A stretch of DNA of 63,380 bases from Bacteroidales bacterium UBA1182 (GTDB taxonomy: Bacteria; Bacteroidota; Bacteroidia; Bacteroidales; Bacteroidaceae), in contig DBYQ01000058.1 in NCBI GenBank assembly GCA_002310015.1, positions 1 to 63,380 of the forward strand, written 5' to 3'. Position numbers and translations under genes: made by a program. Positions within the stretch are counted from its first letter, which is position 1. The number at the start of each line of letters is the position of its first letter. Of the stretch, positions 7,356 to 58,308 are shown piece after piece. The notes beneath the pieces are model-generated. The model was not told the DNA's origin. It was given only the letters and a program-made list of their open reading frames with translations, and made no database searches.

Positions 7356-7370
7356 AAATTAAGCAAAATG

Positions 7371-7445
7371 ATACCATTGGGGTCTGTCCCCTTTGGTATC
7401 ATTTTCAAAAAAAACAGTACAAAAGGGGTCTGACCCCAATTGTAT
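7371..7445. repeat. REP doublet
   Basis: ataccattggggtctgtcccctttggtat (7371-7398) and gtacaaaaggggtctgaccccaattgtat (7417-7445), inverted. Confidence 0.9.
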
Positions 7446-7466
7446 CATTTTTTAGAGAAAAGAGAT

Positions 7467-8516
7467 ATGGCAAATCATGTGGTAATTATGGCGGGGGGTA
7501 TCGGGAGTAGATTCTGGCCCCTGAGTACTCCGGAGTTTCCTAAGCAATTTATTGATATTCTGGGTTGTGGACGGTCGCTGATTCAGCTGACTGTGGACCG
7601 GTTCAAGGGTATTTGCCCATCGGAAAACTTTTGGGTGGTGACTAACAAGGATTACGTGGATATTGTTAAGCAGCAGATTCCTGGTATTCCTTTAAAGCAT
7701 ATTTTAGCTGAGCCAGCGGCGCGAAATACGGCTCCGTGCATTGCCTGGGCGTGCTGGAGCATTAAGGAGGAGGATCCTGATGCAAATGTTGTCGTTACTC
7801 CCAGCGATGCGGTTGTAATGAACCCTGAGGAGTTCAGGCGCGTGATATCGGGCGCATTGGAGTTTACATCGGGCCACGACTTTATCGTGACTATCGGAAT
7901 CAAACCGAATAGGCCGGAAACTGGGTATGGTTATGTAAAAACGGTACAAAAGGGGTCTGACCCCAATTGTATCATTTTGGTGGAGGAGTTTAAGGAGAAG
8001 CCGGATCTGGAGACGGCTAAGAGGTATTTGGCGGATGGAAATTACCTTTGGAATGCGGGGATTTTTGTGTGGAATGTGAAGACGATTACCGATTCTATCA
8101 GGGCTTATAAGCCGATTTTGGCGGGGCAGATGGATAAAATGATACAAAAGGGGTCTGACCCCAATTGTACTGTTTTGGAGATTTTCCCGACTTGTGAGAA
8201 GATTTCTATTGACTATGCGGTGATGGAGCCGGCTGCTGCTGAGGGGAAGGTTTATACTTTTCCGGCGGATTTTGGGTGGAGCGATCTGGGGAACTGGCAG
8301 TCGCTGCATGAAAAGTTGCAGAAGGATGCGGATAATAATGCATCGGTGGGTAATGTACATTTCTATGAATCAAGCAATTGCGTGGTTCATGTTGAGGACG
8401 CCAAGAAGGTTGTGATTCAGGGATTGGACGGGTATATTGTATCGGAAAAGGGGGGACAAATTCTGATTTGCAAGCGTAGCGAGGAGCAGCGCATTAAAGA
8501 GTTTGGAGCAAAATGA
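7467..8516 (+). CDS. manC: mannose-1-phosphate guanylyltransferase
   Basis: VIMAGGIGSRFWPLS, ETGYGYV, FKEKPDLETAKRYL and SIDYAVMEP. The ORF contains two REP units in frame. The TGA stop lies in a REP flank. Confidence 0.85.
   Translation: MANHVVIMAGGIGSRFWPLSTPEFPKQFIDILGCGRSLIQLTVDRFKGICPSENFWVVTNKDYVDIVKQQIPGIPLKHILAEPAARNTAPCIAWACWSIKEEDPDANVVVTPSDAVVMNPEEFRRVISGALEFTSGHDFIVTIGIKPNRPETGYGYVKTVQKGSDPNCIILVEEFKEKPDLETAKRYLADGNYLWNAGIFVWNVKTITDSIRAYKPILAGQMDKMIQKGSDPNCTVLEIFPTCEKISIDYAVMEPAAAEGKVYTFPADFGWSDLGNWQSLHEKLQKDADNNASVGNVHFYESSNCVVHVEDAKKVVIQGLDGYIVSEKGGQILICKRSEEQRIKEFGAK
7944..7972. repeat. REP unit inside manC coding sequence
   Basis: gtacaaaaggggtctgaccccaattgtat is identical (29/29) to the intergenic copy at 7417-7445. 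It is translated as VQKGSDPNCI. Confidence 0.9.
8142..8170. repeat. REP unit inside manC coding sequence
   Basis: atacaaaaggggtctgaccccaattgtac with the aaaatg/tgtttt flanks seen at intergenic copies. It is translated as IQKGSDPNCT. Confidence 0.9.
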
Positions 8517-8690
8517 TGCAATTGGGGTCTGACCCCTTTTGCACTTGTCATTTTCAAAAAAAACAGTACAAAAGGGGTCTGACCCCAATTGTATCATTTT
8601 CAAAAAAAAACAGTGCAAAAGGGGTCAGACCCCAATTGCACCAATGGCACATGCAAAAAGAGTACCAAAGGGGTCTGACCCCAATGGTAC
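8517..8690. repeat. cluster of four REP units
   Basis: Units at 8517-8544 (inverted form) and at 8566-8594, 8613-8641 and 8662-8690 (direct form), including GTGC and ACCA variants. Confidence 0.9.
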
Positions 8691-8715
8691 TTTTTTAATT
8701 TTAAATAATTATGAT

Positions 8716-8723
8716 TATCTTTG
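8716..8723 (+). promoter_or_regulatory. candidate -7 box TATCTTTG
   Basis: TAnnTTTG match 42 nt upstream of the ATG at 8765. Confidence 0.45.
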
Positions 8724-8764
8724 CGGTCTGAATGTGAAATAATATTTTAAAATAAGGATAATAA

Positions 8765-11461: not shown

Positions 11462-11465
11462 TAAT

Positions 11466-12626
11466 ATGGACGAGAATATGAACAATGCGCCTATGACGGA
11501 TGAAGGGGAGGGTATAGATATAATGGTGCTGGTAAAACAGCTATGGGACGGCCGTAAGACTGTAATAATCTGGACCTGTGTGTTCATGGCGTTAGGCCTG
11601 ATAGCCGCATTTACCATGATTCGTAAATACGAGGTGAGTACTGTAATGGTTCCCCAGCTGAACTCCAAGCAAAACGCATCATTGAGCAGTCTGGCATCAC
11701 TTGCGGGATTTGACTTGAGTACGGTCAATACGGGTAGTGAGCTATCGCCGCTTATCTATCCGCAGATTGTGGGCAGCGTTACTTTCATGAAAGAACTGAT
11801 GTACACTCCGCTTCATTATGCTAAGTGTGATACCGCTATCTGCATGTTTGATTATGCGCAGAGTGATTATGCCAAGCCTTCAGTGGTAGGTGCTATATTT
11901 GGAGGTTTAATAAAATATACCATCGGATTGCCGCGTGTGATCCTTAAAGCTATTAGAGGAGAGAAAGAGCCTATAGTATTACCTGAAGGTGAAGGTACGG
12001 CCGATAATACCCCCAAGCCAGTGGTTATAAGTGAGGATGAGGAGGAGATCCTTAAGGAACTTGCAGAAAATGTTTCACTTGCAGTTGATAAGAAAGAAGG
12101 TTATATCACTCTGAATGTAATAGGTTCAGAGCCTATACAGGCTGCGGAACTGGCCATGAAGGCGCAGCAACTGCTTCAGGAGGAACTTACACGTTTCCGT
12201 ATTGAGAAATCAGAAAGTGAGCTGGAATATATCCAGGCCCGTTATAATGAGATAAAATCGGAGACTGAGTCATATCAGGAGCAACTGGCCAGGATTACAG
12301 ACCGTTCACAAAGTGTGACCAATACACGTGACCGCATTGAGCGTGACCGCATCCAGACCAAGTACTCTATCTCAAGTTCCATTTACAGTGAACTGGCCAA
12401 GCAGTTGGAGCAGGCCAAGATGCAGGTTAAGAAGGATACTCCTGTGTTTACTGTAATCCAGCCTATTACTGTTCCTAATAAGCCTTCAAACAGCCGTGCA
12501 AAGACTCTTATCATATGGACGTTCTTTGGCGTGGTTTTGGGCTGTGGCGTGGTTCTGGGGAAGGAGTATTTGCCTAAGCTTTTGGCTCAGTTTAAAGACG
12601 AGGAGGAGGAAAAGATTGAAAATTGA
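11466..12626 (+). CDS. Wzz-like chain-length determinant protein (no kinase domain)
   Basis: N-terminal IDIMVLVKQLWDGRKTVII plus a TM segment, a coiled-coil middle and a C-terminal TM segment. The final residues KIEN and the stop are encoded by a heptamer array. Confidence 0.7.
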   Translation: MDENMNNAPMTDEGEGIDIMVLVKQLWDGRKTVIIWTCVFMALGLIAAFTMIRKYEVSTVMVPQLNSKQNASLSSLASLAGFDLSTVNTGSELSPLIYPQIVGSVTFMKELMYTPLHYAKCDTAICMFDYAQSDYAKPSVVGAIFGGLIKYTIGLPRVILKAIRGEKEPIVLPEGEGTADNTPKPVVISEDEEEILKELAENVSLAVDKKEGYITLNVIGSEPIQAAELAMKAQQLLQEELTRFRIEKSESELEYIQARYNEIKSETESYQEQLARITDRSQSVTNTRDRIERDRIQTKYSISSSIYSELAKQLEQAKMQVKKDTPVFTVIQPITVPNKPSNSRAKTLIIWTFFGVVLGCGVVLGKEYLPKLLAQFKDEEEEKIEN

Positions 12627-24460: not shown

Positions 24461-25435
24461 ATGAGAAAATTTATGGTAGCCGCCATGATGCTTGCGGCAG
24501 TAAGCCTGTCAGTCAATGCGGCTAAGAAGGATAAGAAGGAGGCTTCAGAGCCTGTTCTTGGTATCAAATCAGGTGTTATAACTATGGCCAACAATATGGG
24601 CCAGTTCCAGGGCATGGGCGGCGGCGCCGGTTTCGGCGGTGGCGCAGGAATGGCTATGGGTGGCTTTGGCGGCGGTGCCGGTATGGGCATGGGCGGCGGC
24701 CAGCGTCCTCAGGGCCAGGGCGGCCAGGGCGGCCAGCGTCAGATGAACTTTGATCCCAGCACCATGGTTACCAAGATATATTTTGATGACTACGGTAAGA
24801 AGACTGTAACCGTTACCACACGTGGTGAGGCCGGTACAACCCGTTCACTCGCCATTGGTGAGGATAACTACCAGATCAACGACGCTGAGAAGAGCGCTAC
24901 CAAGATGCCATCATTTGGCGGACGTCGTGGCGGTCAGGGCGGCGGTGGCGGCCGTGGCATGGGTATGGGCATGGGTATGATGGGCGGCATGGGCGCTCAG
25001 ACCACTCCTATGTTCGACTGGGAAAATCTGGATGCCAAGACCATCAAGAAGAACAAGATCAAGGAGCTTGGTGAGGAGGAAGTTGCAGGCGTAATGTGCA
25101 AGATGTACTCCATCACTCAGAGCAACCAGGGTTATTCAACACAGATGACCCTCTGGATATACAAGAACCTCACTATGAAGAGCGAGACCGTAACTGATTA
25201 CGGCACAATGGGCCAGACTGTTGAGAAGCTTGAAGAGACCGATGTTGATCCCGCACTGTTTGAACTCCCCAAGGATTACAAGGTAGAGGAGATGCAGATG
25301 GGTAACTTTGGCGGCGGCATGGGAGGCGGCTTCGGCGGCGGCATGGGCGGCGGTGACTTCGGTGGCGGCGGCTTTGGTGGCGGTGCCGGTGGATTCGGCG
25401 GTGGCATGGGCGGCGGCTTTGGCGGCGGCTTCTAA
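24461..25435 (+). CDS. secreted protein with three Gly/Met/Phe-rich low-complexity modules
   Basis: Signal peptide. Low-complexity blocks at aa 47-93, 151-179 and 281-324 (GGGAGFGGGAGM..., GGGMGGGFGGG...) interrupt a globular beta-rich domain. Confidence 0.7.
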   Translation: MRKFMVAAMMLAAVSLSVNAAKKDKKEASEPVLGIKSGVITMANNMGQFQGMGGGAGFGGGAGMAMGGFGGGAGMGMGGGQRPQGQGGQGGQRQMNFDPSTMVTKIYFDDYGKKTVTVTTRGEAGTTRSLAIGEDNYQINDAEKSATKMPSFGGRRGGQGGGGGRGMGMGMGMMGGMGAQTTPMFDWENLDAKTIKKNKIKELGEEEVAGVMCKMYSITQSNQGYSTQMTLWIYKNLTMKSETVTDYGTMGQTVEKLEETDVDPALFELPKDYKVEEMQMGNFGGGMGGGFGGGMGGGDFGGGGFGGGAGGFGGGMGGGFGGGF

Positions 25436-33577: not shown

Positions 33578-35902
33578 ATGAAGAAGCTTTTGACGTTTAC
33601 AGTCCTGCTTGGTGCGGGGCTGATTGTATTTGGTTGCAAGGGGGATCCTACATTGCCTCGTGATGTTAAGAATTACGATGATCCGCTCATGCAGCATGAG
33701 AAAGAGATATCGGGCATAATAAGCAAGATGACACTTGAGGAGAAGGTGGCAATGCTGCACGGCAAGCATATGTTTACATCTGAGGGTGTTCCGTCACAGG
33801 GTATTGCCGATATGGTTTATGCCGACGGTCCCTTTGGTATCCGTGAGGAGATGGAACCTCATTCATGGAACTCTCTGCATCTTACTACAGACTCTGCCAC
33901 TTTCTTCCCTACAGGATCGGCCCTGGCTGCAACCTGGAGTGATGGGATAGCTTATCTTTATGGAACAGGTATGGCCCGTGAGGCCCGTCTGCGTGGTAAG
34001 GATATGATTTTAGGACCTGCTATCAATATCCAGCGTATTCCTACCGGCGGACGTACATACGAGTATCTGAGTGAGGATCCGTATCTGAGTTCAGTGCTGT
34101 CAGTAGCATATACCAAAGGTGTTCAGAACAACGGCGTGGCTGTTTGTGTAAAGCATTTTGCACTGAATAACCAGGAGACCAACCGCGGTAGTGTGAACGT
34201 TATTGTAAGCCCGCGTGCCATGCGTGAGATATATCTGCCTCCGTTTGAGGCAACAGTGGTTGAGGGTAACGCATTCGGTGTGATGTCGGCTTACAACAAG
34301 ATCAACGGTTACTGGTGTGCCGAGAACTATGAGTTGCTTAACTCTATCCTGCGTAAGGACTGGGGATTCAAGGGTATGGTGATATCAGACTGGGGCGGCA
34401 CTCACAGCACTGTCGAGTCTGTCGTTGCCGGTCTGAACGTGGAGATGCCTAACTCTCAGTATCTGGGCCAGGCTCTGCTGGATTCAGTTGCAGCCGGTGC
34501 TGTGTCTGAGGATGTTATCGATGAGCGTGTGCGTGAGATTCTGCGCGTGCGCCTGGCTGTTGACCCGGTCCCTGAGAATAAGGCAAATGTTGAGATGACT
34601 GCCAAACCTGAGCAGGCTCAGATTGCATATCAGGTGGCTTTACAGTCTATAGTTCTGCTTAAGAATGAAGGCAGTCTGTTGCCTATAGATTTGAATAAGG
34701 TCAAGACTATTGCCGTAATAGGTGATAATGCCGACAAGATTATGGCTACAGGTGGAGTAGGTGCCGGTGTAAAGGCTCTGTATGAGATTACTCCTCTGGC
34801 CGGTCTTAAGAACCGTATTGGTGATAAGGCCAAGATTGTTTATGCCCAGGGTTATACTTCACAGCAGGCTCGCGGTGGATTTGGAGGATTCGGTGGTGGT
34901 TTTGGCGGTTTTGGCCGTCGTGGCGGTGCTACTGCTACTCCCGCTAAGCCTGACGATACTGCCAAGAAGCTGCAGGATGAGGCTGTAAAGGTAGCCAAGA
35001 GTGCCGATATGGTGCTGTTCATCGGTGGTGATAACCGTTCACATGAGACTGAGGGTAGTGACCGCCGCAGCATGGATCTGCCTTATAATCAGGAAAATGT
35101 GCTTGAGGCAGTAGCTAAGGTCAATCCCAACGTGGTATTCATTGCAGTTGCAGGCGCTCCGGTTGACCTTAACCGTGTTCAGGCCTGCTGTCCTGCAATT
35201 GTCCAGTCATGGTTTAACGGTACAGAGGGTGGCAATGCTTTGGCTGATATTCTTACGGGTGAGTCTTCACCGAGCGGCCGTCTGCCTTTCTCATATCCCT
35301 TCAATCTTGAGGACAGCCCCGCATATGCCACAGGCAGTTTTCCGCAGACCGATGCTCCCGTAAATCAGGATGTATTTGTATCACTGGTTCAGGAGGACAG
35401 CAAGGCTGAGGAGATGCTTAAAGGCGCTACCGGTCGTGGCACAGCTCTCTACAGCGAGGACATGCTGGTGGGTTACCGCTGGTTTGATACCAAGCAGAAG
35501 CCGGTGATGTATCCTTTCGGTTACGGACTGGGTTATTCTGAGATTGAGTATTCAGACTTTGCCGCAGACAAGAGTGAATATCGTGACGGTGAAGTAATTA
35601 CAGTGACATTAAAGGCCCATAATAAAGGCAAATATGTACAGTGTGATGTTCCGCAGGTATATGTACACCGTGTTGATTCAAAGATAGAATGGCCTTACAA
35701 GGAGCTTAAGGGATTCACTAAGACAGTGATTTATATTAATCCGGATCCCACCGATGTGGAAATAAAAATACCGGTTGAGTCACTCAAGTACTGGGATGAG
35801 GCCAAACATGATTGGGTTCTGGAGCCCGGTAAGATTGAACTGCTGCTGGCTCATGATGCCGGCAATGTGGCAGGCAAAGTTGAATTGAGAATTGAGAATT
35901 GA
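33578..35902 (+). CDS. glycoside hydrolase family 3 (beta-glucosidase-like) lipoprotein
   Basis: GPAINIQRIPTGGRTYEYLSEDPYL, KHFALNNQE and VISDWGG (nucleophile Asp). The inter-domain linker contains ARGGFGGFGGGFGGFGRRGG. The C-terminus LRIEN and the stop are encoded by a heptamer array. Confidence 0.85.
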   Translation: MKKLLTFTVLLGAGLIVFGCKGDPTLPRDVKNYDDPLMQHEKEISGIISKMTLEEKVAMLHGKHMFTSEGVPSQGIADMVYADGPFGIREEMEPHSWNSLHLTTDSATFFPTGSALAATWSDGIAYLYGTGMAREARLRGKDMILGPAINIQRIPTGGRTYEYLSEDPYLSSVLSVAYTKGVQNNGVAVCVKHFALNNQETNRGSVNVIVSPRAMREIYLPPFEATVVEGNAFGVMSAYNKINGYWCAENYELLNSILRKDWGFKGMVISDWGGTHSTVESVVAGLNVEMPNSQYLGQALLDSVAAGAVSEDVIDERVREILRVRLAVDPVPENKANVEMTAKPEQAQIAYQVALQSIVLLKNEGSLLPIDLNKVKTIAVIGDNADKIMATGGVGAGVKALYEITPLAGLKNRIGDKAKIVYAQGYTSQQARGGFGGFGGGFGGFGRRGGATATPAKPDDTAKKLQDEAVKVAKSADMVLFIGGDNRSHETEGSDRRSMDLPYNQENVLEAVAKVNPNVVFIAVAGAPVDLNRVQACCPAIVQSWFNGTEGGNALADILTGESSPSGRLPFSYPFNLEDSPAYATGSFPQTDAPVNQDVFVSLVQEDSKAEEMLKGATGRGTALYSEDMLVGYRWFDTKQKPVMYPFGYGLGYSEIEYSDFAADKSEYRDGEVITVTLKAHNKGKYVQCDVPQVYVHRVDSKIEWPYKELKGFTKTVIYINPDPTDVEIKIPVESLKYWDEAKHDWVLEPGKIELLLAHDAGNVAGKVELRIEN

Positions 35903-47383: not shown

Positions 47384-47478
47384 ACGCGAAAAGCGCGCGA
47401 CCAGTGGGAGGGGCCCGCGCCATAGGCGTGGGAGGGCCGGCCGAAGGCCGCTTTTGGAAGGGTATCACCCCTTTTTTA
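47384..47478. other. GC-rich hairpin element related to 44683-44868 (truncated, opposite orientation)
   Basis: Shares GGGAGGGGCCCG (12/12), TGGGAGGG and the terminal GGA(A/G)GGTAT(C/A)ACCCCT hairpin, in the same order as the minus strand of the first element. Followed by a T-run. Confidence 0.5.
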
Positions 47479-47537
47479 TTTGGAAAGTCGCTGTTAAATA
47501 CCTATCTTCGCAAGCAATAAAACCAACCAAATATAGT

Positions 47538-50096
47538 ATGAGAAAGATTTTATTAGTCCTAAGCGTGTTTGCGCTTACGTGTGCATCGGCCATTGCTGCC
47601 GATAACAAAGGCATTTCATTTAATGAATTATCCGGTGACAGATTTACCCTTATTGAGAACGGCAAACCCGTGCAGATTCTGGCCGATGAGGCTGATAAGA
47701 GCGGTGTTCAGATTGCTCTGAAGGCTTTGCAGAAGGATTTCAAGGCTGTAGCAGGGCAGGAGGCTAAGGTGATTTATGATGCAGCCGGCATAAGCGGTAA
47801 GCCTGTGATTGTAGGTACAATTGACAGCAAGTACATTGCCCAGATTATCAAGGCTAAGAAGATCAACAAGAAGGATCTGCAGGGCAAGCGTGAAAAGTAC
47901 ATCATGACTGTTGTGGAGAATCCTATCAAGGGTATTGATGAGGCTATGGTGATTGCAGGTAGCGATATGCGCGGTGCCATTTACGGTATATATGAATTGT
48001 CTGAGCAGATTGGCGTATCTCCCTGGTACTACTGGGCTGACGTTCCAATTGAGCATCAGGATAACATTTCATTGGCTAAGGGCACTTATACCGCAGGTGA
48101 GCCTGCAGTGACCTATCGTGGCATATTCCTGAATGATGAGGCTCCGTGCCTTACCACATGGGTCAAGAATACATTCGGCACACAGCGCGGCGGACATGAG
48201 TTCTACGCATGCTGCTTTGAACTGATCCTGCGTCTGCGCGGTAACTTTATGTGGCCCGCCATGTGGGACTGGGCATTCTATGCTGATGATCCTGAGAACT
48301 CCAAGACAGCCAATGACATGGGCGTGATAATGGGAACATCTCACCATGAGCCGATGGCCCGCAACCATCAGGAATGGGCCCGTAACCCCAAGGCATACGG
48401 CGGCCAGTGGGACTATACCACCAACAAGCAGGAGCTGCAGAGGTTCTTCCGTGAGGGCGTGGAGCGCGCCAAGAATACCGAGGACCTTATTACTATAGGT
48501 ATGCGCGGTGACGGCGATGCCGAACTGCGCGGCAGCGACGAGGACAATATGAAGATGCTGGAGGGCCTCTTTGCCGACCAGCGCCAGATAATCAAGGAGG
48601 TAACCGGAAAGCCTGCCGAGCAGCGTCCGCAGGTATGGGCACTCTACAAGGAGGTTCAGACCTATTATAACAAGGGTTTGCGCGTGCCTGACGATGTGAT
48701 CATCCTTTTGTCCGATGACAACTGGGGCGATATCCGCCGTCTGCCCAATGCCGAGGAGCGCAAGCGTAAAGGCGGCTGGGGTATGTACTATCATGTGGAC
48801 TATGTAGGTGCACCGCGTAACTCAAAGTGGTTGAATATCACTCCGATACAGCACCTTTGGGAGCAGATGCAGCTTACATACGATTACGGAGTTGACAAAA
48901 TCTGGGTGCTTAATGTTGGTGACCTCAAGCCTATGGAGTATCCCATCACACTGTTCCTGGATATGGCCTGGAACCCCACATCATTCACCGTTGACAACCT
49001 GCTGGATCACACCTACGAGTTCTGCAAGGAGTTCTTCGGTGAGGAGGAGGCTCAGGAGGCTGCTCGCATACTGAACCTTTGCTGCAAGTACAACGGCCGT
49101 ATAAGCGCCGAGATGCTTGATGCCCGTCAGTACTACACACTTGAGACCGGTGAGTTTGAGCAGGTTTGCGATGATTACGCACGTCTGGAGGCTGAGGCTC
49201 TGCGTCAGTATCTGAGACTCAAGCCTGAGTACCGCGATGCTTATCAGCAGATAATACTGTTCCCCGTACAGGCTATGGGTAACATCTATGACATGTACTA
49301 CAGCCAGGCCATGAACCAGAAGCTGGCCCGCAACAATGATCCGGCTGCAAACTACTGGGCTGAGCGTTGCGAGCGTGACTTTAAGCGTGATGCCGAGCTC
49401 TGCGCCTATTATAATAAGGAGATGGCCGGCGGCAAGTGGAACGGCATGATGATCCAGAAGCACATTGGCTATACATCATGGAACGATAATTTCCGCGCCG
49501 ATACACAGCCGCGCGTAAGCCGCGTTGAGGTGGGAGAGAAGAATGGAGGATACGTTTTCACTCAGAAGGATGGCGTTGTTGCCATGGAGGCTGAGCACTA
49601 CTATTCACAAAATGCAGTTACCACCGGTTCAGCCAAGTGGACTACAATTCCTTTCATGGGCCGAACGCTGTCAGGCGTGGCTTTGATGCCTTACAGCCAG
49701 CCTACCGATGGCGCCAGCATGACCTATAAGTTCAATCTTAATGATGATGTTGATAATCTCTCAGCTGTGATTGCAGTTAATGCCACATTGACATTCTACC
49801 GTCTTGAGGGACACCGCTACATGGTAAGCCTGGATGGCGGTCAGGAGGTTGAAGTTGTGTTCAATGAGCGTCTGAATGAGGATCAGCGTAACATTTACTC
49901 AGTTTACTATCCCACAGTTGCTACCCGTGTCAAGGATGACCGCGTACAGCTGGGCAAGGCTGCCAAGGGCGAGCATACACTGACTATCCGTCCTATTGAG
50001 CCGGGAACCGTGTTTGAGAAGGTTGTGATTGATGCTGGCGGGTATATTAAGAGCTATCTCTTCATGCCGGAGTCTCCGTACGTCAGGGAAAATTGA
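47538..50096 (+). CDS. glycoside hydrolase family 115-like protein (alpha-glucuronidase)
   Basis: Signal peptide. GSDMRGAIYGIYELSEQIGVSPWYYWADVP and YRGIFLNDEAP blocks as in GH115. The last codons and the stop fall in a heptamer array. Confidence 0.65.
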   Translation: MRKILLVLSVFALTCASAIAADNKGISFNELSGDRFTLIENGKPVQILADEADKSGVQIALKALQKDFKAVAGQEAKVIYDAAGISGKPVIVGTIDSKYIAQIIKAKKINKKDLQGKREKYIMTVVENPIKGIDEAMVIAGSDMRGAIYGIYELSEQIGVSPWYYWADVPIEHQDNISLAKGTYTAGEPAVTYRGIFLNDEAPCLTTWVKNTFGTQRGGHEFYACCFELILRLRGNFMWPAMWDWAFYADDPENSKTANDMGVIMGTSHHEPMARNHQEWARNPKAYGGQWDYTTNKQELQRFFREGVERAKNTEDLITIGMRGDGDAELRGSDEDNMKMLEGLFADQRQIIKEVTGKPAEQRPQVWALYKEVQTYYNKGLRVPDDVIILLSDDNWGDIRRLPNAEERKRKGGWGMYYHVDYVGAPRNSKWLNITPIQHLWEQMQLTYDYGVDKIWVLNVGDLKPMEYPITLFLDMAWNPTSFTVDNLLDHTYEFCKEFFGEEEAQEAARILNLCCKYNGRISAEMLDARQYYTLETGEFEQVCDDYARLEAEALRQYLRLKPEYRDAYQQIILFPVQAMGNIYDMYYSQAMNQKLARNNDPAANYWAERCERDFKRDAELCAYYNKEMAGGKWNGMMIQKHIGYTSWNDNFRADTQPRVSRVEVGEKNGGYVFTQKDGVVAMEAEHYYSQNAVTTGSAKWTTIPFMGRTLSGVALMPYSQPTDGASMTYKFNLNDDVDNLSAVIAVNATLTFYRLEGHRYMVSLDGGQEVEVVFNERLNEDQRNIYSVYYPTVATRVKDDRVQLGKAAKGEHTLTIRPIEPGTVFEKVVIDAGGYIKSYLFMPESPYVREN

Positions 50097-50205
50097 GAAT
50101 TGAAAATTATAAAAAAGGTTCGGAAAACTCCGAACCTTTTTTAATGTCGCGGGTTATTACGCAGGTGCTTGTTAATTTTCAATTTTCAATTTTCAATTCT
50201 CAATT
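50091..50205. repeat. heptamer-armed cassette H8 (module A)
   Basis: aattgagaattgaaaatt, a hairpin, AATGTCGCGGG, TTACGCAGGTGCTTGTT, then aattttcaattttcaattttcaattctcaatt. Confidence 0.9.
50111..50142. terminator. bidirectional terminator hairpin (cassette core)
   Basis: aaaaaaggttcggaaaactccgaacctttttt between convergent genes. Confidence 0.7.
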
Positions 50206-50937
50206 CTAAAAGTCCAAGCTTACCGTGAGCCCAAAAGCGGGGGACTTATCGGTAGGTAGGAATACTGTGGGTTCAAACTCAAACTGCAGGAGTTTGGCAG
50301 CCTGCCTTAATTCAAGTTCATTGTTGTACTCATCCGCTATCTTTTCTATCGCTCGTTTAGCCTTACCTCTGCCTATGCGGCCCCAGCAATAGAATGTGAG
50401 TGCCGGTACTGCTAATGCTCCTGAGATTATGTATAGCTTCTCTGACAGCCCAGGATCATCATCCGATCTGTGAGTGGCCGCTATAAGTGTAAGGATTGCG
50501 GTGGGAACAATAAGTATGGTTCCTATGGTTTCCTTATTATCGGCTTTAATGAAACTTTTACGGGCAGCATCAAATCTCTCAAACTGAACGGAATCCAGAA
50601 GCTGCTTCAAATCATCGTCACGGATAGCGTTGCCTGCGCCTCGGCCCTCTACGAAAGTAAGGTTAGCACTGCTTCTTTCAAGAGCCGTGCTGTCATTAAG
50701 GGTGTTGAAGCTACCCCAGCCGCCAAAGCCGCCGCCCATACCGCCACGACCTCCACCGCCTCCAAAGCCGCCTCCGCCGCCCATGCCCATACCGCCGCCG
50801 AAGCCGCCGCCTCCGCCCATACCACCGCCTCCACCGAAGCCACCTCCGCCGCCTCCGCCACGCTGAGCAAAGGTTACAACAGAAATCATCAGTATAAAAA
50901 ACAGTGTAATGGTTCTTTTGAGGTTCATATCGGGCAT
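50206..50937 (-). CDS. Gly-rich membrane-associated protein (hypothetical)
   Basis: Signal peptide, a ~50-aa block QRGGGGGGGFGGGGGMGGGGGFGGGMGMGGGGGFGGGGGRGGMGGGFGGWG, and two predicted TM helices. Ends in ...TVSLDF. An alternative ATG lies at 50928. Confidence 0.6.
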   Translation of the reverse strand: MPDMNLKRTITLFFILMISVVTFAQRGGGGGGGFGGGGGMGGGGGFGGGMGMGGGGGFGGGGGRGGMGGGFGGWGSFNTLNDSTALERSSANLTFVEGRGAGNAIRDDDLKQLLDSVQFERFDAARKSFIKADNKETIGTILIVPTAILTLIAATHRSDDDPGLSEKLYIISGALAVPALTFYCWGRIGRGKAKRAIEKIADEYNNELELRQAAKLLQFEFEPTVFLPTDKSPAFGLTVSLDF

Positions 50938-50999
50938 AGTAATTTACCGGGTTAGAGTTCTAATTTCCTATTAGACTCCATTCAGCCTTTTTGGTTTAA

Positions 51000-52745
51000 T
51001 CACTTCCAGTTTTTATCAAGGAAAGCTATGCGGTCAGCAAACCATTTCTTGAGTATGCCTATTTCCTCATCGTAACTGGAGACGGTGTATGCTGAGAACA
51101 TACCTGCTGCTCCGCCGCCACCGAAACCTCCGAATCCTCCACCGCCGGGGAATCCTCCTCCAAAGCCGCCGAATCCACCAAATCCGCCGTTCTGCTGTCC
51201 CTGGGTATTCTGACTGTCATCTCTCTTGGGAACCAGAAGGTCTGAATATTTTGTATACTGACGGGCCTGAGCCTCCTGAAGTTGAGCGGCGTGCTCATCA
51301 ATGAAACGGTTTATGCTTTCAATGCTCAGATAGTCCTTGCGGAGTTCTTTCCAGCGTGCCTTGACCTTAGCCATGAAAGCGGGATCCTCTGTGAGGCGTT
51401 TCCACATAGCGGGGGTGGGGTTGGTCTCGCTGCCTTCATAAACCCATGCCTCAATATTGTTGGCATTGGCGAAATTGCAGTTGCCGTATGCCAGGTTGTA
51501 ATCCCATACTGTGCCGGCATGCAGTTTACCGCCAGTACCGTCCTCATTCTGCTTGGTCTTATAGAAATAGGTACTGCGCTTGAGGCCATCGGCATTAAGG
51601 CTGAGCTCAGTATGAATGAAGTAATCCACAAATGATTCCACATCAATGTATTTGGCGTAGCCGTTAACCGGATCTGCAAAATCATCGCTCTGGATTACCT
51701 TCTCAACGGTATTTACGTAATTGGCGATATACTCCTGCTGCTTATCGGTCATCTTGCTGGCCTTGGGGTATAAGATGGTCCATGTTACGGTAGCCCTGCC
51801 GCCAAAACCGCCCCCAAAGCCGCCCATTCCGCCTCCGAATCCGCCGAACATGCCGCCTACGTTGGTGTTCATGATGCCGGGAACATCAGATGTGAATGAT
51901 TTCTCACCTTCATCGGGCGGGTCAACACGTACTATGTAACCACCTGTGATATCGATACCTGTGGTATCCTTAGAGGTGAGCTTGGCTATGTCAATGCGGT
52001 TCTTGCCGCGTTTGATCTTTTCACAAAGTGTGTAAACGCCTATGTACTTGCCGTTCATGACTACCTCACAATAGCGTGTGTGCGGTGCCCAATGGCCCAT
52101 GTTATTCCACATGTCAAATGCAAACGCGTCACGCATCATTGAGACGTCATTATATGGAGCCAGCAGCACCCAGTCATTATCGGCCGGCATGCCTAAAAGT
52201 TCCACATCATTGGCCTTGCCTTCAGAGGTTACTGTCTCAAATGTAAAACGCTTCTGATCAAAGAACAGTGATGAATTTCCGCGAAGCTTTATCTTGATGT
52301 TTCCGTCATATCCGTTAGCCGGATCAGTTATTTTATTGCGTTTCTTGCCATTGTCAATGATCTTCATTGTGGCACCAGACTTCTCCCTGTTGGTGAGTGT
52401 CTTGCCCTCTGTCTGGATAATCACGATAGGCAGGTTTGATGATGTAAACTCCACATCATTACGGGTTGTGGTAGGGTCATATTCCGTACCCATTCCAAAG
52501 CCGCCGCCAAAGCCTCCGAATCCGCCTCCGCCGGGGAAACCGCCTGGCATCTGGCCTCCTTCCTGATCCTGAACGGGGAAACGTCCGCCAAAACCACCGG
52601 GGAATCCGCCACCTGGGAAACCGCCTCCCTGAAATCCTCCGCCACCTCCGGGAAATCCTCCACCGGGAAACTGTGAACACACTGTCAAGGGCAATAAGAC
52701 TACTGCACCGATTATAAGAAATTTTCTGACTGACTTAAATGACAT
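51000..52745 (-). CDS. CotH kinase family protein with three Gly/Phe-rich insertions
   Basis: CotH-like core (DWVLLAPYNDVSMMRDAFAFDMW, GKYIGVYTLCEKI, GLKRSTYFYK). GGF/GGFPGG blocks follow the signal peptide, occur mid-protein and occur near the C-terminus. Confidence 0.7.
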   Translation of the reverse strand: MSFKSVRKFLIIGAVVLLPLTVCSQFPGGGFPGGGGGFQGGGFPGGGFPGGFGGRFPVQDQEGGQMPGGFPGGGGFGGFGGGFGMGTEYDPTTTRNDVEFTSSNLPIVIIQTEGKTLTNREKSGATMKIIDNGKKRNKITDPANGYDGNIKIKLRGNSSLFFDQKRFTFETVTSEGKANDVELLGMPADNDWVLLAPYNDVSMMRDAFAFDMWNNMGHWAPHTRYCEVVMNGKYIGVYTLCEKIKRGKNRIDIAKLTSKDTTGIDITGGYIVRVDPPDEGEKSFTSDVPGIMNTNVGGMFGGFGGGMGGFGGGFGGRATVTWTILYPKASKMTDKQQEYIANYVNTVEKVIQSDDFADPVNGYAKYIDVESFVDYFIHTELSLNADGLKRSTYFYKTKQNEDGTGGKLHAGTVWDYNLAYGNCNFANANNIEAWVYEGSETNPTPAMWKRLTEDPAFMAKVKARWKELRKDYLSIESINRFIDEHAAQLQEAQARQYTKYSDLLVPKRDDSQNTQGQQNGGFGGFGGFGGGFPGGGGFGGFGGGGAAGMFSAYTVSSYDEEIGILKKWFADRIAFLDKNWK

Positions 52746-52807
52746 ATGTACGTTATGATTTATATATAGATTATCATTTGAATCGTCAAAAGTTAAATCA
52801 ATAACTC

Positions 52808-52848
52808 AAAAGGGGATGTTCCTGTAAACTGTCGGAACATCCCCTTTT
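52808..52848 (-). terminator. rho-independent terminator hairpin
   Basis: aaaaggggatgttcc ... ggaacatcccctttt: a 15-nt arm pair with A/T tracts, directly downstream of the SGNH gene. Confidence 0.7.
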
Positions 52849-52872
52849 AATTAGTTTTTATATTAAGTTACC

Positions 52873-54072
52873 TCATTTCTCAAACAACTTGAGGTCTATG
52901 CAGTTGCCCATCTGCACATAGCCTTCAGCATTGGGGTGCAGATAATCGTTCTCAAACAGATACTTGGGGTTGAGCTGTGCAGGATCATCGGGATTACCCA
53001 TGGCTGCATCAAAGTCAATGACACCGTCAAAATAACCTCCGTTGCGGATCCACTGGTTGAGTTGCTGACGTCCTGCCTCATGGTTCTCACTGTAATAGTT
53101 GTTGCCCTTGAACTGCATTACGGGAGCACCGTAGACAAGAATGTCGCGCTCGTGTGCCTCATCTATGATCTGTTTGTAAACTTCTATGATCTGCTTTGCT
53201 TTTGCGGTTGCATCACCATAGCCGCCCAGGTCATTGACACCCTCAAACAGGATGATGTATTTTACGCCCTCCTGCTGGAACAGGTCACGCGGATAACGGC
53301 TCTTGCCGGTAGGGCCGAGACCGCCGTTAAGTATGCAGTTTCCGCCAAGCCCCATGTTCAGCACTGATACACGCTTGGTCTTCTTATTGGCAAGCAGACG
53401 GCGTGACAGGTTATCGGTCCAACGGTTCTGCTCATTGGTGGTTGAACCACGACCATCAGTTATGGAGTTGCCCAGGACTACTATGGCGCGGGCCTTCTTC
53501 TCAGCCTTGATCTCAATGGCGTTAATGATGTACCAGTGGGCAGTCTTTACAGCATTTGTAAAGTCTGAGCCCTGACCTTCAATAAGATATGAATCAGTAC
53601 GTGAGCCGGGGTGGCCTGTCACGCTGGTTGATGAAGCCTCACCCAGATGCATGGTGATGGCAACATTCTCACGTGTACCCATGGGGAACTTGACTGGATC
53701 TGACGTAACGAGTTTACCGGGCTCTATGGTAACTGATTTCTTGCCACCGAATGTGAGGCTTACCTCTGTTCCAGCAATGATGTCACTGCTGCTGCCGGCT
53801 GTGGCTGCACGTGCTATCTCTGCTGCGTTGATGGTTACAGGACCCTGGCTGAACTCATTAGAGAACTTTACGCGGACTTCCTTGCCGCTGATGGACGTCT
53901 GTACTATCTGACGTATTGAATTGTTGCCAAGGCCTGGGGCTGGGGGACAGTTGTGGGGCTCAACCACCTGCTCTGCGGTGGCCCATGTAGCTACCCAATG
54001 CTTTTTTGCGCTGGCTGAACTGATTGTCAAAAATGACAGGACTACTGTAAGTAATGCACTTTTAATTCTCAT
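52873..54072 (-). CDS. SGNH/GDSL hydrolase family protein (secreted esterase)
   Basis: Signal peptide and an N-terminal beta domain. Block I VVLGNSITDG, GVNDLG, and a C-terminal DYLHPN (catalytic Asp/His region). Confidence 0.75.
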   Translation of the reverse strand: MRIKSALLTVVLSFLTISSASAKKHWVATWATAEQVVEPHNCPPAPGLGNNSIRQIVQTSISGKEVRVKFSNEFSQGPVTINAAEIARAATAGSSSDIIAGTEVSLTFGGKKSVTIEPGKLVTSDPVKFPMGTRENVAITMHLGEASSTSVTGHPGSRTDSYLIEGQGSDFTNAVKTAHWYIINAIEIKAEKKARAIVVLGNSITDGRGSTTNEQNRWTDNLSRRLLANKKTKRVSVLNMGLGGNCILNGGLGPTGKSRYPRDLFQQEGVKYIILFEGVNDLGGYGDATAKAKQIIEVYKQIIDEAHERDILVYGAPVMQFKGNNYYSENHEAGRQQLNQWIRNGGYFDGVIDFDAAMGNPDDPAQLNPKYLFENDYLHPNAEGYVQMGNCIDLKLFEK

Positions 54073-54293
54073 AGTTTTATGGTTTTGGTTGTTAATGTTC
54101 AGAAATCTTTTTCAAAGGTACGTAAAAAGAGTGTTCTGATGAAACCAAAACCATAAATACTATAGAAAAAACCACATCGAGTTGAACATTATTAATATCG
54201 GACTGTCACATCAATAAATGTTTCATCTGTTCCAAATATTAAGATTTGTTCCAAAAGCGCACGTCAACTATGGAACATTCAGAAATATTGGAG

Positions 54294-54301
54294 TATCTTT
54301 G
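54294..54301 (+). promoter_or_regulatory. candidate -7 box TATCTTTG
   Basis: TAnnTTTG match 27 nt upstream of the ATG at 54328. Confidence 0.45.
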
Positions 54302-54327: not shown

Positions 54328-57300
54328 ATGCGTAAACCAATTATTGCTTTACTGACCGCATTGTGTATTGCCATAACCGCAAATGCGCAAAGAATATATC
54401 ATTTCCCTATCGGACAGGTATCCGATAACCGTTTCCATGCCATCTGTGAGGATTTGTCAGGATTCATGTGGATTGGAACGGAGAATGGTCTTAACCGTTA
54501 TGACGGATACAATTTCCATCAGTTCTTCCATGATGACAATGATTCACTTTCACTTCTGAGCAATTATGTAAGAAGCCTGTACATAGATGCTGACGGAACA
54601 TTATGGATAGGAACAAACCGCGGATTACAATATCTAAGATCAAGTGAGAAAAGTTTCCATACGGTTCCGTTCCCCGGGAGCAGGTCACCTTATATTGAGA
54701 AAATCAGCCAGTTCAGTGACGGAAAGATATGGATTGCAGCACGCGGCAACGGCATTTTCTGGGTAGATCCCAAGGATCCGGTGCAGGCCAACAGTGTTGT
54801 AAGTGTCAATACGTTCTCTACGGCTCAGAGGGTATTCCGTACATTGCTTGAGGATCAGGAAGGAACCATCTGGCTGGGTTCCACAACAGGAATTCTGCTG
54901 TACGACCCTAAGACAGACAAGATAACGGAGTTCCGTCCTGACATGCTTGACCATGACATTACCGGTATCAACAAGGATGAAAACGGCAATGTCTATATTA
55001 CCACCAATAACCATCTTTATATGTGGAACTCTGACAGGCGTACTCTTACGCGGCTTACGCCCGATGAAGGTATCTGGGAGATAACCCATTCTTTCATTGA
55101 CAAGGATGGCCTTAAGATATCCATACGCGGTAAGGGACTTCTTGCCCTCACCAATGAGAGGAAGCTTGAAAGGGTGGAGCTTAAACCGTTTGACCGCAGT
55201 CTGGAGAAACTTGATGTCAGCGCTTACTACCGTGATAAAGCCGATAACATCTGGATAGGATGCTTTCTTTCCGATTATATACTTGTAACAAAGGAGAGGA
55301 ATGAGTTTGACTATTGGAAATTCTCTGATTATCAGGAGGATGTATCGGGAACTGTCACTGCGATGATTACTGATACCAAGGGCCGGCTCTGGATAGGATA
55401 CAACAACAACAGCCTGACCTGTATGTCAAATGAGGGTGAAGTGTTGAAGGAAGGCAAAGGTTCTGCTTACATTAACTGCATGTTCCGTGACAACCGTAAC
55501 AGGATATGGGTGGGTTATCCCAATGGAGGTCTTGCCATACTTGATACCGAAACCGGACGGTTGCGCCCCGTAATGACCAATGAGTACTCAAATGTCTCAT
55601 CAATAGCAGAGGATCTGCAGGGACGAATCTATTATTCAGAACTTGGAAGCGGTTTCAGCAGGCTGGATCCGTCAGATATGAAACCTGCGCTGTACACAAG
55701 TTTTGCCCAAAGCGGCAGGAACGGCCAGTGGCTCAGCAATGACTGGATACATACCATGGTTGTTGATTCCTGGAACAGGCTCTGGATAGGACATGACAAC
55801 GGTGTTGACTGCTTTGATGTTGACCACAACACATTCCTGCCCAACAATAAGATATTGGCCGCCATGGGTACATCGGGCTGTACCTGTATTCTTGAAGAGG
55901 GTAATGGCATAATGTGGTTCGGAACTACCAAGGGCGTGATAATATATGATTCCACAAATGGTGAAACACGCCTTCTGAACACCTCAAAAGGACTCTCAAA
56001 CGATGATATCCGTGGTATGATAAAGGATAATGACGGATATGTATGGGTGGCAACCCCGAACGGCCTTAACCGTATTAATTCCGAGAATCTGGAGATAAGC
56101 CGTTTCTTTACGGAGGAGAAGGCATTCAACAGGGTATCAGCGTTCTCTGCAGTTGATGGAAGGGCATATTTTGGAAGCAATGCAGGTATTACGGCTTTCA
56201 GCCCATACAACATAACAACCGGATCCAAGGTCAACCAAGTGATTATGACCGGGTTCTATCTTAACGGTGAACAGATTACCCATGAATCACTGTCGGGCGG
56301 AAAACGTATCTCAGAGAAGCCCCTGAGCATGTCTGACCAGTTCAGGCTGGCATACAGGGACAACTCCTTTACGCTTGAATTCAGTACGCTCAATTATGGT
56401 GATGAGGCCAGCCTGATTTATGAGTATTCACTTAATCCGGACAAGAGGGAGTGGACAAGCAATCCGGCGGGTGTCAACAGGTTTACGTTCTCAAGGCTGG
56501 GATTCGGGCGATACACGCTTTCCGTTAGAGCCAGACTGAATGATATCGTCTCAGAACCAAAGACTTACAATATCAAGATTGAAGCGCCCTGGTATGCCAC
56601 ATCCCTGGCTGTATGTATCTATCTGATTATTGTGCTGGCTATTCTGATGGTTATATTCAAGCTCCGCCGTAAATCACGTGAGAGGGAGATGGATGAGGCC
56701 AAGTTCCAGTCATTCATCAATGTGGCCCATGAGATTTGTGCTCCTATGACTATGGTCATTTCACCGTTGGAGGATATGCTGCGCGATGACAATACTCCTG
56801 CCACGATGTTGCCTAACCTGCGTCAGATGCACAAGAGCTCCACCAGAATACTGTCGCTTATAAACCAGCTGCTGGATATGCGTAAGTATGATGAGGGCCA
56901 GATGCAACTTCATTTTGCTGAAACTGACCTCATAAACTTCCTGATGGGCCCGTTTGAGCTATACACGCAGACGGCTGAGAAACGAAACATAAACTTCCGT
57001 TTCAACCATCCCATGGTAGAGCAGCCTGTCTGGATTGACCGTGACAGCATTGACAAGGTTATGATGAACCTGCTGTCAAATGCCTTCAAATACACGCCCG
57101 ATGACGGTACGATTGAAATAGATGTTGAGGTAGGGACCGATGACCATGAGAGCGGCCCGCTGCACAATTATGTTGAGGTTTCTGTGATTGATACCGGCAT
57201 CGGCCTGGACAAGGATGACGTGAACAGGGTGTTCCAACGTTTCTACAGGGTTGACAATGATGTTACATCGGTCACCATGGGAATGGGTATCGGACTTAAT

Positions 57301-58308
57301 TACAGCCAGATGCTTATAAACATGCATAACGGAACCATTAAGGCCGGCAATCGTACGGACGGACAGAAGGGTAGTGTATTCTCTTTCCGCCTGCCGCTTG
57401 GAAACAGTCATATAGCAAAAGAGGATATGGTTGATCCAGAGGAGGTTGTGCGCCAGCAACTGGACCGCAACAGGGCAAGTATGGATCTGGATGAACCGGA
57501 AGAAACCAACCAGGCTAAAGGAACCTTTAAAGTGCTGGTTGTGGATGATGATGATTCAATGCTTGATTATCTGACAGACAGTCTCAAACAGAGCTACAAG
57601 GTGATTACCGCTCGTAACGGCAAGGAGGGACTGAAGATTGCCGTATCACAGATCCCTGATATTATATTAACTGATGTGGTTATGCCTGAGATGGATGGCA
57701 TCCAACTGGTAAAGGCACTTAAGGGTAACTCACTGGTAAGCCATATCCCTGTCATCATGCTGTCAGGCAAGAACAAGCTTCAGGACCGTACTTTAGGACT
57801 TGATACCGGTGCAGACAGCTATCTGCCCAAACCGTTCTATATCAGTGAGCTTAAGTCACTTATGGCCAACCTTATCAATAACCGCCTCATCGTTAAGGGC
57901 AAGTACTCAGGCCAGCAGGAACAGGCAGAACAGGTGGCTCCCGTACAGTTTGAATCAAGTGACGAGCTGTTCATGAAGCGTGTCATGTCAATTGTCAACA
58001 AGAACATCTCAAACAGCGAGTTCAATATATCCTTCATGGTTGACGAGGTGGGTATGAGCCGCACGCAGCTGCATCGCAAGCTGAAGGAACTTACCGGATT
58101 CTCCGCTGCAAGGTTCCTGCAGAATATCCGCATGCAACAGGCCATGAAACTGCTCAAGGAGAAGAAGGTGAACGTTTCCCAGATTGCCTACAGCGTAGGT
58201 TTCTCTTCACAGACACACTTCTCTACCACCTTCAAGCAGTACTACGGCGTTAGCCCCACGGAGTATATTAAGCAGATTGAAGCTGAAGAGAAAAAAATTG
58301 AAAATTGA
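54328..58308 (+). CDS. hybrid two-component system sensor kinase / response regulator with AraC-type HTH (HTCS)
   Basis: Periplasmic beta-propeller repeats (WIGT.NGL), a TM segment, the HisKA H-box FINVAHEICAPM, an HATPase domain, a REC domain (VLVVDDDD...TDVVMPEMDG) and a C-terminal AraC HTH. The final KIEN and the stop come from a heptamer array. Confidence 0.9.
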   Translation: MRKPIIALLTALCIAITANAQRIYHFPIGQVSDNRFHAICEDLSGFMWIGTENGLNRYDGYNFHQFFHDDNDSLSLLSNYVRSLYIDADGTLWIGTNRGLQYLRSSEKSFHTVPFPGSRSPYIEKISQFSDGKIWIAARGNGIFWVDPKDPVQANSVVSVNTFSTAQRVFRTLLEDQEGTIWLGSTTGILLYDPKTDKITEFRPDMLDHDITGINKDENGNVYITTNNHLYMWNSDRRTLTRLTPDEGIWEITHSFIDKDGLKISIRGKGLLALTNERKLERVELKPFDRSLEKLDVSAYYRDKADNIWIGCFLSDYILVTKERNEFDYWKFSDYQEDVSGTVTAMITDTKGRLWIGYNNNSLTCMSNEGEVLKEGKGSAYINCMFRDNRNRIWVGYPNGGLAILDTETGRLRPVMTNEYSNVSSIAEDLQGRIYYSELGSGFSRLDPSDMKPALYTSFAQSGRNGQWLSNDWIHTMVVDSWNRLWIGHDNGVDCFDVDHNTFLPNNKILAAMGTSGCTCILEEGNGIMWFGTTKGVIIYDSTNGETRLLNTSKGLSNDDIRGMIKDNDGYVWVATPNGLNRINSENLEISRFFTEEKAFNRVSAFSAVDGRAYFGSNAGITAFSPYNITTGSKVNQVIMTGFYLNGEQITHESLSGGKRISEKPLSMSDQFRLAYRDNSFTLEFSTLNYGDEASLIYEYSLNPDKREWTSNPAGVNRFTFSRLGFGRYTLSVRARLNDIVSEPKTYNIKIEAPWYATSLAVCIYLIIVLAILMVIFKLRRKSREREMDEAKFQSFINVAHEICAPMTMVISPLEDMLRDDNTPATMLPNLRQMHKSSTRILSLINQLLDMRKYDEGQMQLHFAETDLINFLMGPFELYTQTAEKRNINFRFNHPMVEQPVWIDRDSIDKVMMNLLSNAFKYTPDDGTIEIDVEVGTDDHESGPLHNYVEVSVIDTGIGLDKDDVNRVFQRFYRVDNDVTSVTMGMGIGLNYSQMLINMHNGTIKAGNRTDGQKGSVFSFRLPLGNSHIAKEDMVDPEEVVRQQLDRNRASMDLDEPEETNQAKGTFKVLVVDDDDSMLDYLTDSLKQSYKVITARNGKEGLKIAVSQIPDIILTDVVMPEMDGIQLVKALKGNSLVSHIPVIMLSGKNKLQDRTLGLDTGADSYLPKPFYISELKSLMANLINNRLIVKGKYSGQQEQAEQVAPVQFESSDELFMKRVMSIVNKNISNSEFNISFMVDEVGMSRTQLHRKLKELTGFSAARFLQNIRMQQAMKLLKEKKVNVSQIAYSVGFSSQTHFSTTFKQYYGVSPTEYIKQIEAEEKKIEN

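Follow-up and report, generated by a model that had tools for sequence, protein, structure and literature searches.

A CotH-family protein with Gly-rich modules and its conserved neighbor in a xylan-debranching locus of uncultured Bacteroidales

Results

The CotH gene and its neighbor

We analyzed a 63,380-nt stretch of DNA, hereafter the window, which comprises contig DBYQ01000058.1 (assembly GCA_002310015.1) of Bacteroidales bacterium UBA1182. Two adjacent genes on its minus strand encode a CotH-family protein and a small protein, hereafter the neighbor, and both proteins carry Gly-rich low-complexity modules. The pairing of the two genes is real and conserved in related genomes. A sequence-only reading of the window had proposed that they form a kinase/substrate or co-assembly pair at the cell surface. 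The features of the pair are the following (ORF, open reading frame; AF2, AlphaFold2; pLDDT, predicted local distance difference test).

51000..52745, minus strand: CotH-family kinase-fold protein, 581 aa (ORF, Pfam, AF2, Foldseek, hhalign)
52674..52745, minus strand: predicted CotH signal peptide, aa 1-24 (cleavage predicted before Q25; site A followed by QFPGG in orthologs)
52491..52673, minus strand: CotH N-terminal Gly/Phe/Pro/Met module, aa 25-85 (predicted disordered, pLDDT 23-37; 0-64 aa among orthologs)
51795..51863, minus strand: CotH mid-domain Gly/Phe/Met module, aa 295-317 (loop insertion relative to Bacillus CotH; pLDDT below 50 at 295-316)
51588..51596, minus strand: N384-A385-D386, aligned with B. 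subtilis N226-Y227-D228, predicted catalytic Asp (hhalign)
51501..51506, minus strand: W414-D415, aligned with B. subtilis W250-D251, predicted second catalytic Asp (hhalign)
51093..51200, minus strand: CotH C-terminal Gly/Phe/Pro module, aa 516-551 (before the last helix of the fold; pLDDT below 50 at 509-544)
50206..50937, minus strand: orphan neighbor protein, 243 aa (ORF, alignment A3)
50713..50862, minus strand: neighbor Gly-rich module, aa 26-75 (75% Gly, then Phe, Arg, Gln and Met; predicted disordered, pLDDT 37-42)
50368..50532, minus strand: two hydrophobic helices, aa ~136-190, a hairpin presumed to be an inner-membrane anchor (hydropathy of ortholog L003, AF2)

Identity and active site of the CotH protein

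The assignment to the CotH family made by the sequence-only reading is borne out by the profile match and by the fold. Pfam PF08757 matched residues 152-575 with nearly its entire profile (positions 1-321 of 322; E 9.8e-60; score 203 bits, cut-off 23.8 bits). The AF2 model, which was built on 30 homologs, has a predicted template modeling score of 0.70 and core pLDDT values mostly of 80-97, and a Foldseek search of the PDB with this model returned the B. cereus CotH structures 5jd9/5jda as the only significant matches (E 1e-11, probability 1.0, target TM-score 0.66). An hhalign comparison of 22 Bacteroidota homologs with Bacillus CotH sequences, taken from cotH loci in genomes, gave a probability of 97.3% over 336 columns; it replaced a search of the PDB with a profile of the C-lobe only, which found no match. 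A single-sequence phmmer search of the CotH protein against the PDB was discarded, as it returned only low-complexity artefacts (Snf7 and the G/F region of DnaJ) and a profile is needed.

In CotH of the B. subtilis group, D228 lies within N-Y-D-G and D251 within W-D-Y. The hhalign alignment places N384-A-D386-G of the window protein on N226-Y-D228-G and W414-D415-Y on W250-D251-Y. No variation occurs at N384, W414 and D415 in either CotH alignment (A1 or A2), and D386 is invariant in A2 and conserved in at least 90% of sequences in A1. The B. subtilis CotH variants D228Q and D251A are inactive (PMC7821199). The catalytic residues are therefore present in the window protein (D386 and D415) rather than missing. 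As judged from the alignments, the protein is an enzyme with the full CotH fold, with predicted kinase activity and with Asp at both of the catalytic positions that mutation has validated. No dockerin, carbohydrate-binding module (CBM) or C-terminal domain (CTD) of the type IX secretion system (T9SS) was found on it.

The neighbor protein

The neighbor consists of a signal peptide (aa 1-24), a Gly block (aa 26-75) and hydrophobic helices at residues ~136-157 and 169-190, in agreement with the 50-residue block and two membrane helices predicted earlier. AF2 modeled the latter region as a confident helical hairpin (helices 116-155 and 162-216, pLDDT 77-91). An alignment of 27 neighbor homologs (A3) shows a common layout: a signal peptide ending in ...FA followed by Q(R/P), a Gly block (~20-60 aa), a ~60-aa conserved domain, two Pro-containing hydrophobic helices, and a tail. 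The consensus of the ~60-aa domain is NDSTELER...GSLTFVEGRGAGNAIRDDDLKQLLDS...FIKGDNKE, and residues N81-D82-S83, just past the Gly block, are nearly invariant. The conserved tail ends in ...FGATVNLSF, and the stretch after helix 2, read from the sequence, is strongly basic.

No match to the neighbor was found in Pfam (E up to 10) or NCBIfam, and the Foldseek search yielded generic helical hairpins only (best E 0.5). An exhaustive phmmer search of 1.84 billion representatives recovered seven clusters, all of the neighbor's own family. By these searches the neighbor is a lineage-restricted orphan. Distant members of the family keep the architecture and have tails of the G/R/N type, not of the G/F/M type. 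A distant homolog, at 34% identity, comes from Candidatus Colenecus caballi (locus L106), is 213 aa long and has the tail GGGGGFGGGGGNRGGGNRG; its gene lies beside those of a putative AraC-type regulator and of a putative glycoside hydrolase that by eye resembles GH5.

The Gly-rich modules

A six-frame scan for Gly-rich blocks recovered the three CotH blocks and the neighbor block where the sequence-only reading had placed them. The Gly content is 63% in the CotH modules and 75% in the neighbor module, as compared to 6% in the remainder of CotH, an enrichment far beyond chance. The stretches of the CotH model that are predicted to be disordered (1-84, 295-316 and 509-544) coincide with the three modules, and the mid-domain and C-terminal modules are in the insert state relative to Bacillus CotH in the hhalign alignment. 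Ser and Thr together account for at most 1.7% of module residues and Tyr is absent; the neighbor repeat has 0.2% Ser and lacks both Thr and Tyr, and it is not a Ser-rich phospho-acceptor repeat. Because there is almost no Ser, Thr or Tyr in them, the modules cannot be kinase targets, and the idea that the shared module is the interface between a kinase and its substrate is not supported.

The same three module positions are occupied in every CotH ortholog down to ~56% identity, while the sequences are rich in indels and variable. The N-terminal module ranges from 0 to 64 aa, the mid-domain module from 15 to 39 aa and the C-terminal module from 23 to 41 aa, with a total of 75-120 aa per CotH. 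The modules are missing from CotH homologs of no more than 50% identity, several of which have a T9SS CTD instead. At the DNA level, the module repeats are degenerate (70-90% match, periods of 9-36 nt, mixed Gly codons), and so are the 18/36-nt repeats of the neighbor module (70-73% match). This degeneracy indicates that the modules are old and maintained, and recent replication slippage as their origin was rejected on the same grounds.

Besides CotH and the neighbor, only four ORFs carry such a module in ~1.25 Mb (the window and the related loci), which does not support the module as a proteome-wide habit of the lineage. Since the module is uncommon, two adjacent carriers are noteworthy. The earlier count of four module-bearing exported proteins in the window was confirmed, all four having N-terminal export signals. 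The two others are a 324-aa exported protein (24461-25435, plus strand) with three G/M/F/A blocks and a sub-threshold match to DUF4412, and a GH3 lipoprotein (33578-35902, plus strand) with one GGFGGFGGGFGGFG loop at aa 429-452. Two further carriers lie in a related locus with a module-poor CotH (L036): a putative DUF4412-like protein (8193-8834, minus strand; assigned by similarity to the window ORF), which ends in ...MQMGGFGGGGF, and a 909-aa lipoprotein-like ORF (9015-11744, plus strand) with a GGGFGGGFGGGFGG loop. The module thus recurs in a few other exported families of the wider lineage. Literature searches found nothing relevant on Gly/Phe/Met modules in exported proteins of Bacteroidota.

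Other arrangements occur in paralogous CotH clades. In L040, L042, L043, L045 and L046 (ORFs at ~5905-7735) a single C-terminal G/F/P/M block of ~140 aa is present, and the CotH of L058 (5917-7620) has a single mid-domain block of ~100 aa of the same composition. At least in L040-L042, the ORFs following CotH are consistent with the FKBP isomerase genes seen in the tally of flanking genes (see below).

Conservation of gene order

The CotH locus is 99% identical to a contig of the metagenome-assembled genome (MAG) RUG10916 of an uncultured rumen Bacteroidales. The genes around the pair are as follows (HTCS, hybrid two-component system regulator).

54328..58308, plus strand: HTCS, divergent from the esterase, CotH and neighbor genes (Pfam, synteny)
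52873..54072, minus strand: SGNH/GDSL esterase, upstream of CotH (Pfam, synteny)
47454..50096, plus strand: GH115 alpha-glucuronidase, convergent with the neighbor gene (Pfam, synteny)

The TTG start listed for GH115 (47454) is probably too far upstream, as a typical signal peptide, MRKILLVLSVFALTCASAIA, begins at an ATG near 47538. By its gene content, the locus is a xylan side-chain-removal neighborhood and not a classical SusC/D polysaccharide utilization locus.

A tblastn analysis of 80 CotH loci showed that the esterase-CotH-neighbor-GH115 order, together with the HTCS gene, is kept in ~27 species-level genomes, which come from the rumen and hindgut of cattle, buffalo, sheep, goat, yak, deer, reindeer and horse. 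Synteny of CotH and the neighbor in relatives, on which the earlier proposal of a pair depended, was thus found. In L003 (7694-8443) and L004 (the same loci as L099 and L098), the neighbor gene is inverted relative to CotH, yet lies between CotH and GH115. A search of reference genomes seeded with the neighbor recovered the same loci, two truncations at contig ends and the 34%-identity homolog; apart from these last three, all neighbor homologs adjoin CotH. The linkage of the esterase and CotH, with the HTCS gene included, is kept deeper than that of CotH and the neighbor, down to 51% CotH identity.

Sister lineages differ in what they retain. L022, L027 and L032-34 carry a full three-module CotH without the neighbor, which was found neither next to CotH nor elsewhere in those MAGs when searched for. 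In L029-31 and L035, CotH, the esterase and the HTCS gene are kept, the neighbor is absent and the modules are reduced. In more distant Bacteroidota, a Pfam tally of 66 flanking genes revealed heterogeneous contexts and no common partner of CotH; VTC and DUF4956 as candidate universal partners were rejected by this tally. The CotH proteins of several of the loci L047-L080 carry a T9SS CTD, and some lie beside genes for an MprF-like lysyl-phosphatidylglycerol synthase or a TonB-dependent receptor.

Some MAG contigs break within the GGN-rich DNA encoding the Gly block of the neighbor (L005/L087, both from the MAG Reindeer_1_mag_99, and L096); one broken contig stops ~320 nt past CotH and another begins at neighbor residue 84. 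As the Gly modules are assembly breakpoints, counts of the pair may be too low where assemblies are fragmented.

Export and location

Both proteins have predicted signal peptidase I (SPI) sites that follow the Q-rule, the occurrence of Gln after the SPI cleavage site in exported and periplasmic proteins of Bacteroidota (PMC5837995, PMC10653852). In CotH orthologs the site is A or S followed by QFPGG, with A24, Q25 and F26 nearly invariant (A2), and in neighbor orthologs it is ...FA followed by Q(R/P)GGG, with A24 and Q25 invariant (A3). A conserved lipobox was absent from the alignments of both families. No T9SS CTD was found: Pfam gives only the CotH domain, which extends to residue 575 of 581, and the neighbor lacks such a domain as well. 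Taken together, these features make the periplasm or the inner membrane the likely location of both proteins. The cell-surface location proposed by the sequence-only reading is not supported, as there is neither a T9SS CTD nor a conserved lipobox and as SPI sites with A before Q are typical of periplasmic proteins.

Transcription and non-coding features

Non-coding features of the locus are listed below.

50110..50143, minus strand: putative bidirectional intrinsic-terminator hairpin after the neighbor gene, common to the convergent GH115 gene (15-bp stem and T-run)
52806..52850, minus strand: hairpin followed by UUUU in the esterase-CotH gap (17-bp stem, -27.4 kcal/mol, z -6.8; in some loci only)
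54113-54120, minus strand: TAnnTTTG -7 motif (motif match)
54294-54301, plus strand: TAnnTTTG -7 motif (motif match)

In 22 of 23 co-oriented loci, the gap between CotH and the neighbor shows weak structure and measures 56-74 nt, and every co-oriented orthologous locus has a strong hairpin 3' of the neighbor. Among loci, the length of the esterase-CotH gap ranges between 0 and 244 nt, and the hairpin at 52806-52850, which escaped the terminator scan because its loop is 11 nt, is a possible attenuator or terminator. Bacteroidota -7 motifs occur only upstream of the esterase and HTCS genes. CotH and the neighbor are probably co-transcribed; the most economical reading of these features is either an esterase-CotH-neighbor operon with an optional attenuator or a CotH-neighbor bicistron.

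Between the stop codon of the neighbor and the terminator hairpin there is a near-perfect tandem repeat of AATTTTC (4.6 copies, 50174-50205). Antisense to the Gly blocks run Pro-rich ORFs (PPPKPPP...; 50630-50866, 51721-51939 and 52294-52566, all on the plus strand), which were rejected as genes, being mechanical artefacts of the GGN repeats.

Discussion

Comparison with known systems

The window protein shares with Bacillus CotH (PF08757; 5jd9/5jda) the fold, both catalytic Asp positions and an adjacent gene for a low-complexity protein. In Bacillus, the low-complexity proteins CotB and CotG, which are substrates of CotH, are encoded in one cluster with cotH. Unlike Bacillus CotH, to which it is ~12-20% identical, the window protein has Gly/Phe/Met insertions, is predicted to be exported via Sec and SPI, and belongs to a non-sporulating diderm and to a xylan locus rather than a spore-coat cluster. 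The partners differ as well: CotB and CotG are rich in Ser, Lys and Arg, whereas the repeat of the neighbor is Gly-rich and essentially devoid of Ser.

CotH proteins are a recurrent non-CAZyme component of fiber-degrading systems, where their function is undefined (PMC12774918, PMC12484212, PMC8665504). With the cellulosomal CotH proteins of clostridia, ruminococci and anaerobic fungi, the window protein has in common the CotH domain, the predicted extracytoplasmic location and the association with plant-fiber degradation. However, the cellulosomal proteins are targeted by dockerins, while the window CotH lacks a dockerin, is probably periplasmic and contains low-complexity Gly modules. Other relatives are the Bacteroidota CotH proteins with a T9SS CTD, which belong to the same family and phylum (30-45% identity). 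These differ in having a Por_Secre_tail, a sorting domain that implies surface or extracellular export, in lacking Gly modules and in their heterogeneous gene contexts.

The modules themselves are nearly identical in composition to abductin, the elastomer of the mollusc hinge, which has the repeat GGFGGMGGGX and 58 mol% Gly (PMC9999432). In both cases runs of two to five Gly residues are split by single Phe or Met residues, with 63-75% Gly here. Abductin, however, is an animal extracellular structural protein consisting almost wholly of repeat, whereas here modules of 20-60 aa are attached to an enzyme and a membrane protein, and there is no homology. Of the PDB sequences, only the G/F region of DnaJ matched the module in the phmmer search. 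Both this region and FG-nucleoporin repeats are disordered and rich in Gly and Phe, and the likeness is compositional only; they are cytosolic or located in the nuclear pore and have defined partners (Hsp70 and transport receptors, respectively). FG repeats mediate weak multivalent cohesion.

A proposed periplasmic unit linked to xylan use

We tentatively favor the explanation that CotH and the neighbor form a co-transcribed unit of a periplasmic enzyme and its membrane partner, linked to xylan use, in which the modules act as flexible tethers. The unit would sit in an HTCS-controlled locus for glucuronoxylan debranching, encoding an SGNH esterase and a GH115 enzyme, in uncultured Bacteroidales of the rumen and hindgut. 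Both proteins would have a periplasmic site of action, at the inner membrane or close to it. The neighbor would be the membrane-proximal partner of CotH, serving as an anchor, as a regulator or possibly, via its ordered domain, as a substrate. The Gly-rich modules would be flexible, weakly cohesive tethers or spacers and not phosphorylation sites. During the utilization of xylan, the unit may play an accessory part in phosphotransfer or in binding; this suggestion draws on a parallel with bacterial and fungal cellulosomes, in which the role of CotH is likewise undefined.

Several observations weigh against this explanation. A periplasmic kinase has no obvious supply of ATP, a paradox also noted for extracellular cellulosomal CotH (PMC12774918). 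As a consequence of the cleaved signal peptide, both termini of the neighbor would be periplasmic, and with them the basic stretch after helix 2, contrary to the positive-inside rule. The modules of the two proteins are compositional cousins and not one repeat, those of CotH being built of runs of two to four Gly residues with Phe, Met or Pro and that of the neighbor of runs of five to seven with Phe, Met, Arg or Gln. Module lengths in CotH and the neighbor do not co-vary (rho -0.12), and for the counts of sticker residues (Phe, Met and Trp) the co-variation is no more than marginal (rho 0.42, p 0.047, without correction for phylogeny). The three-module CotH of L022, L027 and L032-34 occurs without the neighbor, so that the CotH modules are independent of it, and the neighbor homolog of L106 (2156-2797) has no CotH nearby. 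The view that the CotH modules depend on the partner is therefore not supported. Overall, of the sequence-only reading the CotH identity, the active site and the synteny stand, while the surface location and the module as a substrate interface do not.

The first alternative is that the two proteins have no physical relationship, the modules being lineage-specific, tolerated or inert spacers or loop expansions and the genes being adjacent only through their membership in one co-regulated xylan locus. Besides the absence of length co-variation and the existence of a modular CotH without the neighbor, this explanation is consistent with the modules in unrelated exported proteins (the GH3 enzyme, the DUF4412-like protein and the L036 lipoprotein), with their predicted full disorder and variation by indels, and with the deeper linkage of CotH to the esterase than to the neighbor. 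However, members of the neighbor family hardly ever occur without CotH beside them, the adjacency survives inversion in L003/L004, and the gap between the two genes is short and constant. The modules, although rare overall, are found in both adjacent genes, their size and Phe/Met content stay within narrow limits across 56-100% CotH identity, and their degenerate DNA repeats indicate age and maintenance. We consider the absence of a physical relationship somewhat less likely than the periplasmic unit.

A kinase/substrate pair, in which CotH would phosphorylate Ser or Thr residues in the ordered periplasmic domain or the C-terminal tail of the neighbor, by analogy with Bacillus CotH and the adjacent CotB and CotG, appears improbable. 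It would be in line with the intact catalytic residues, with the Bacillus cotH neighborhood, which encodes the low-complexity substrates of the kinase, and with the conserved Ser and Thr residues after the Gly block of the neighbor (N81-D82-S83 and the consensus NDSTELER). On the other hand, the shared module is essentially devoid of phospho-acceptors, the neighbor has no counterpart of the Ser/Lys/Arg-rich repeats in CotB and CotG, no ATP pool is known in the periplasm, and CotH orthologs function without the neighbor in sister lineages.

Less likely again is a carbohydrate-directed CotH, which would modify or bind xylo-oligosaccharides or glucuronoxylan fragments, with the neighbor either incidental or a membrane coupling factor. 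Fam20B and POMK are glycan kinases. The link of CotH with the esterase and HTCS genes, extending to 51% CotH identity and thus beyond the range of the neighbor, is compatible with such a role, as is the speculation that cellulosomal CotH binds the plant cell wall (PMC8665504). Yet no member of the CotH family is known to act on sugars, the conserved residues are those used for protein phosphorylation in Bacillus, and the distant CotH genes of Bacteroidota lie in heterogeneous contexts unrelated to glycans.

Finally, we consider it very unlikely that the modules are a cohesive low-complexity code for a membrane-proximal periplasmic condensate or elastic meshwork, an analog of FG-repeat phases that would be nucleated by the membrane-anchored neighbor, include CotH, the neighbor, the GH3 enzyme and the DUF4412-like protein, and organize xylan-processing enzymes.

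Significance

In anaerobic fungi, CotH proteins account for about 20% of the dockerin proteins; they are also present in bacterial cellulosomes, and none of them has a defined function. The clade described here offers a compact and genetically tractable case, that is, an intact CotH and one dedicated orphan partner in a small xylan-debranching locus. The modules represent a rare bacterial abductin- or FG-like low-complexity sequence whose insertion points in an enzyme fold are fixed. Should they prove inert, the pair would be another conserved hypothetical protein beside a CotH gene; if they mediate assembly, this would be low-complexity-driven organization in the periplasm.

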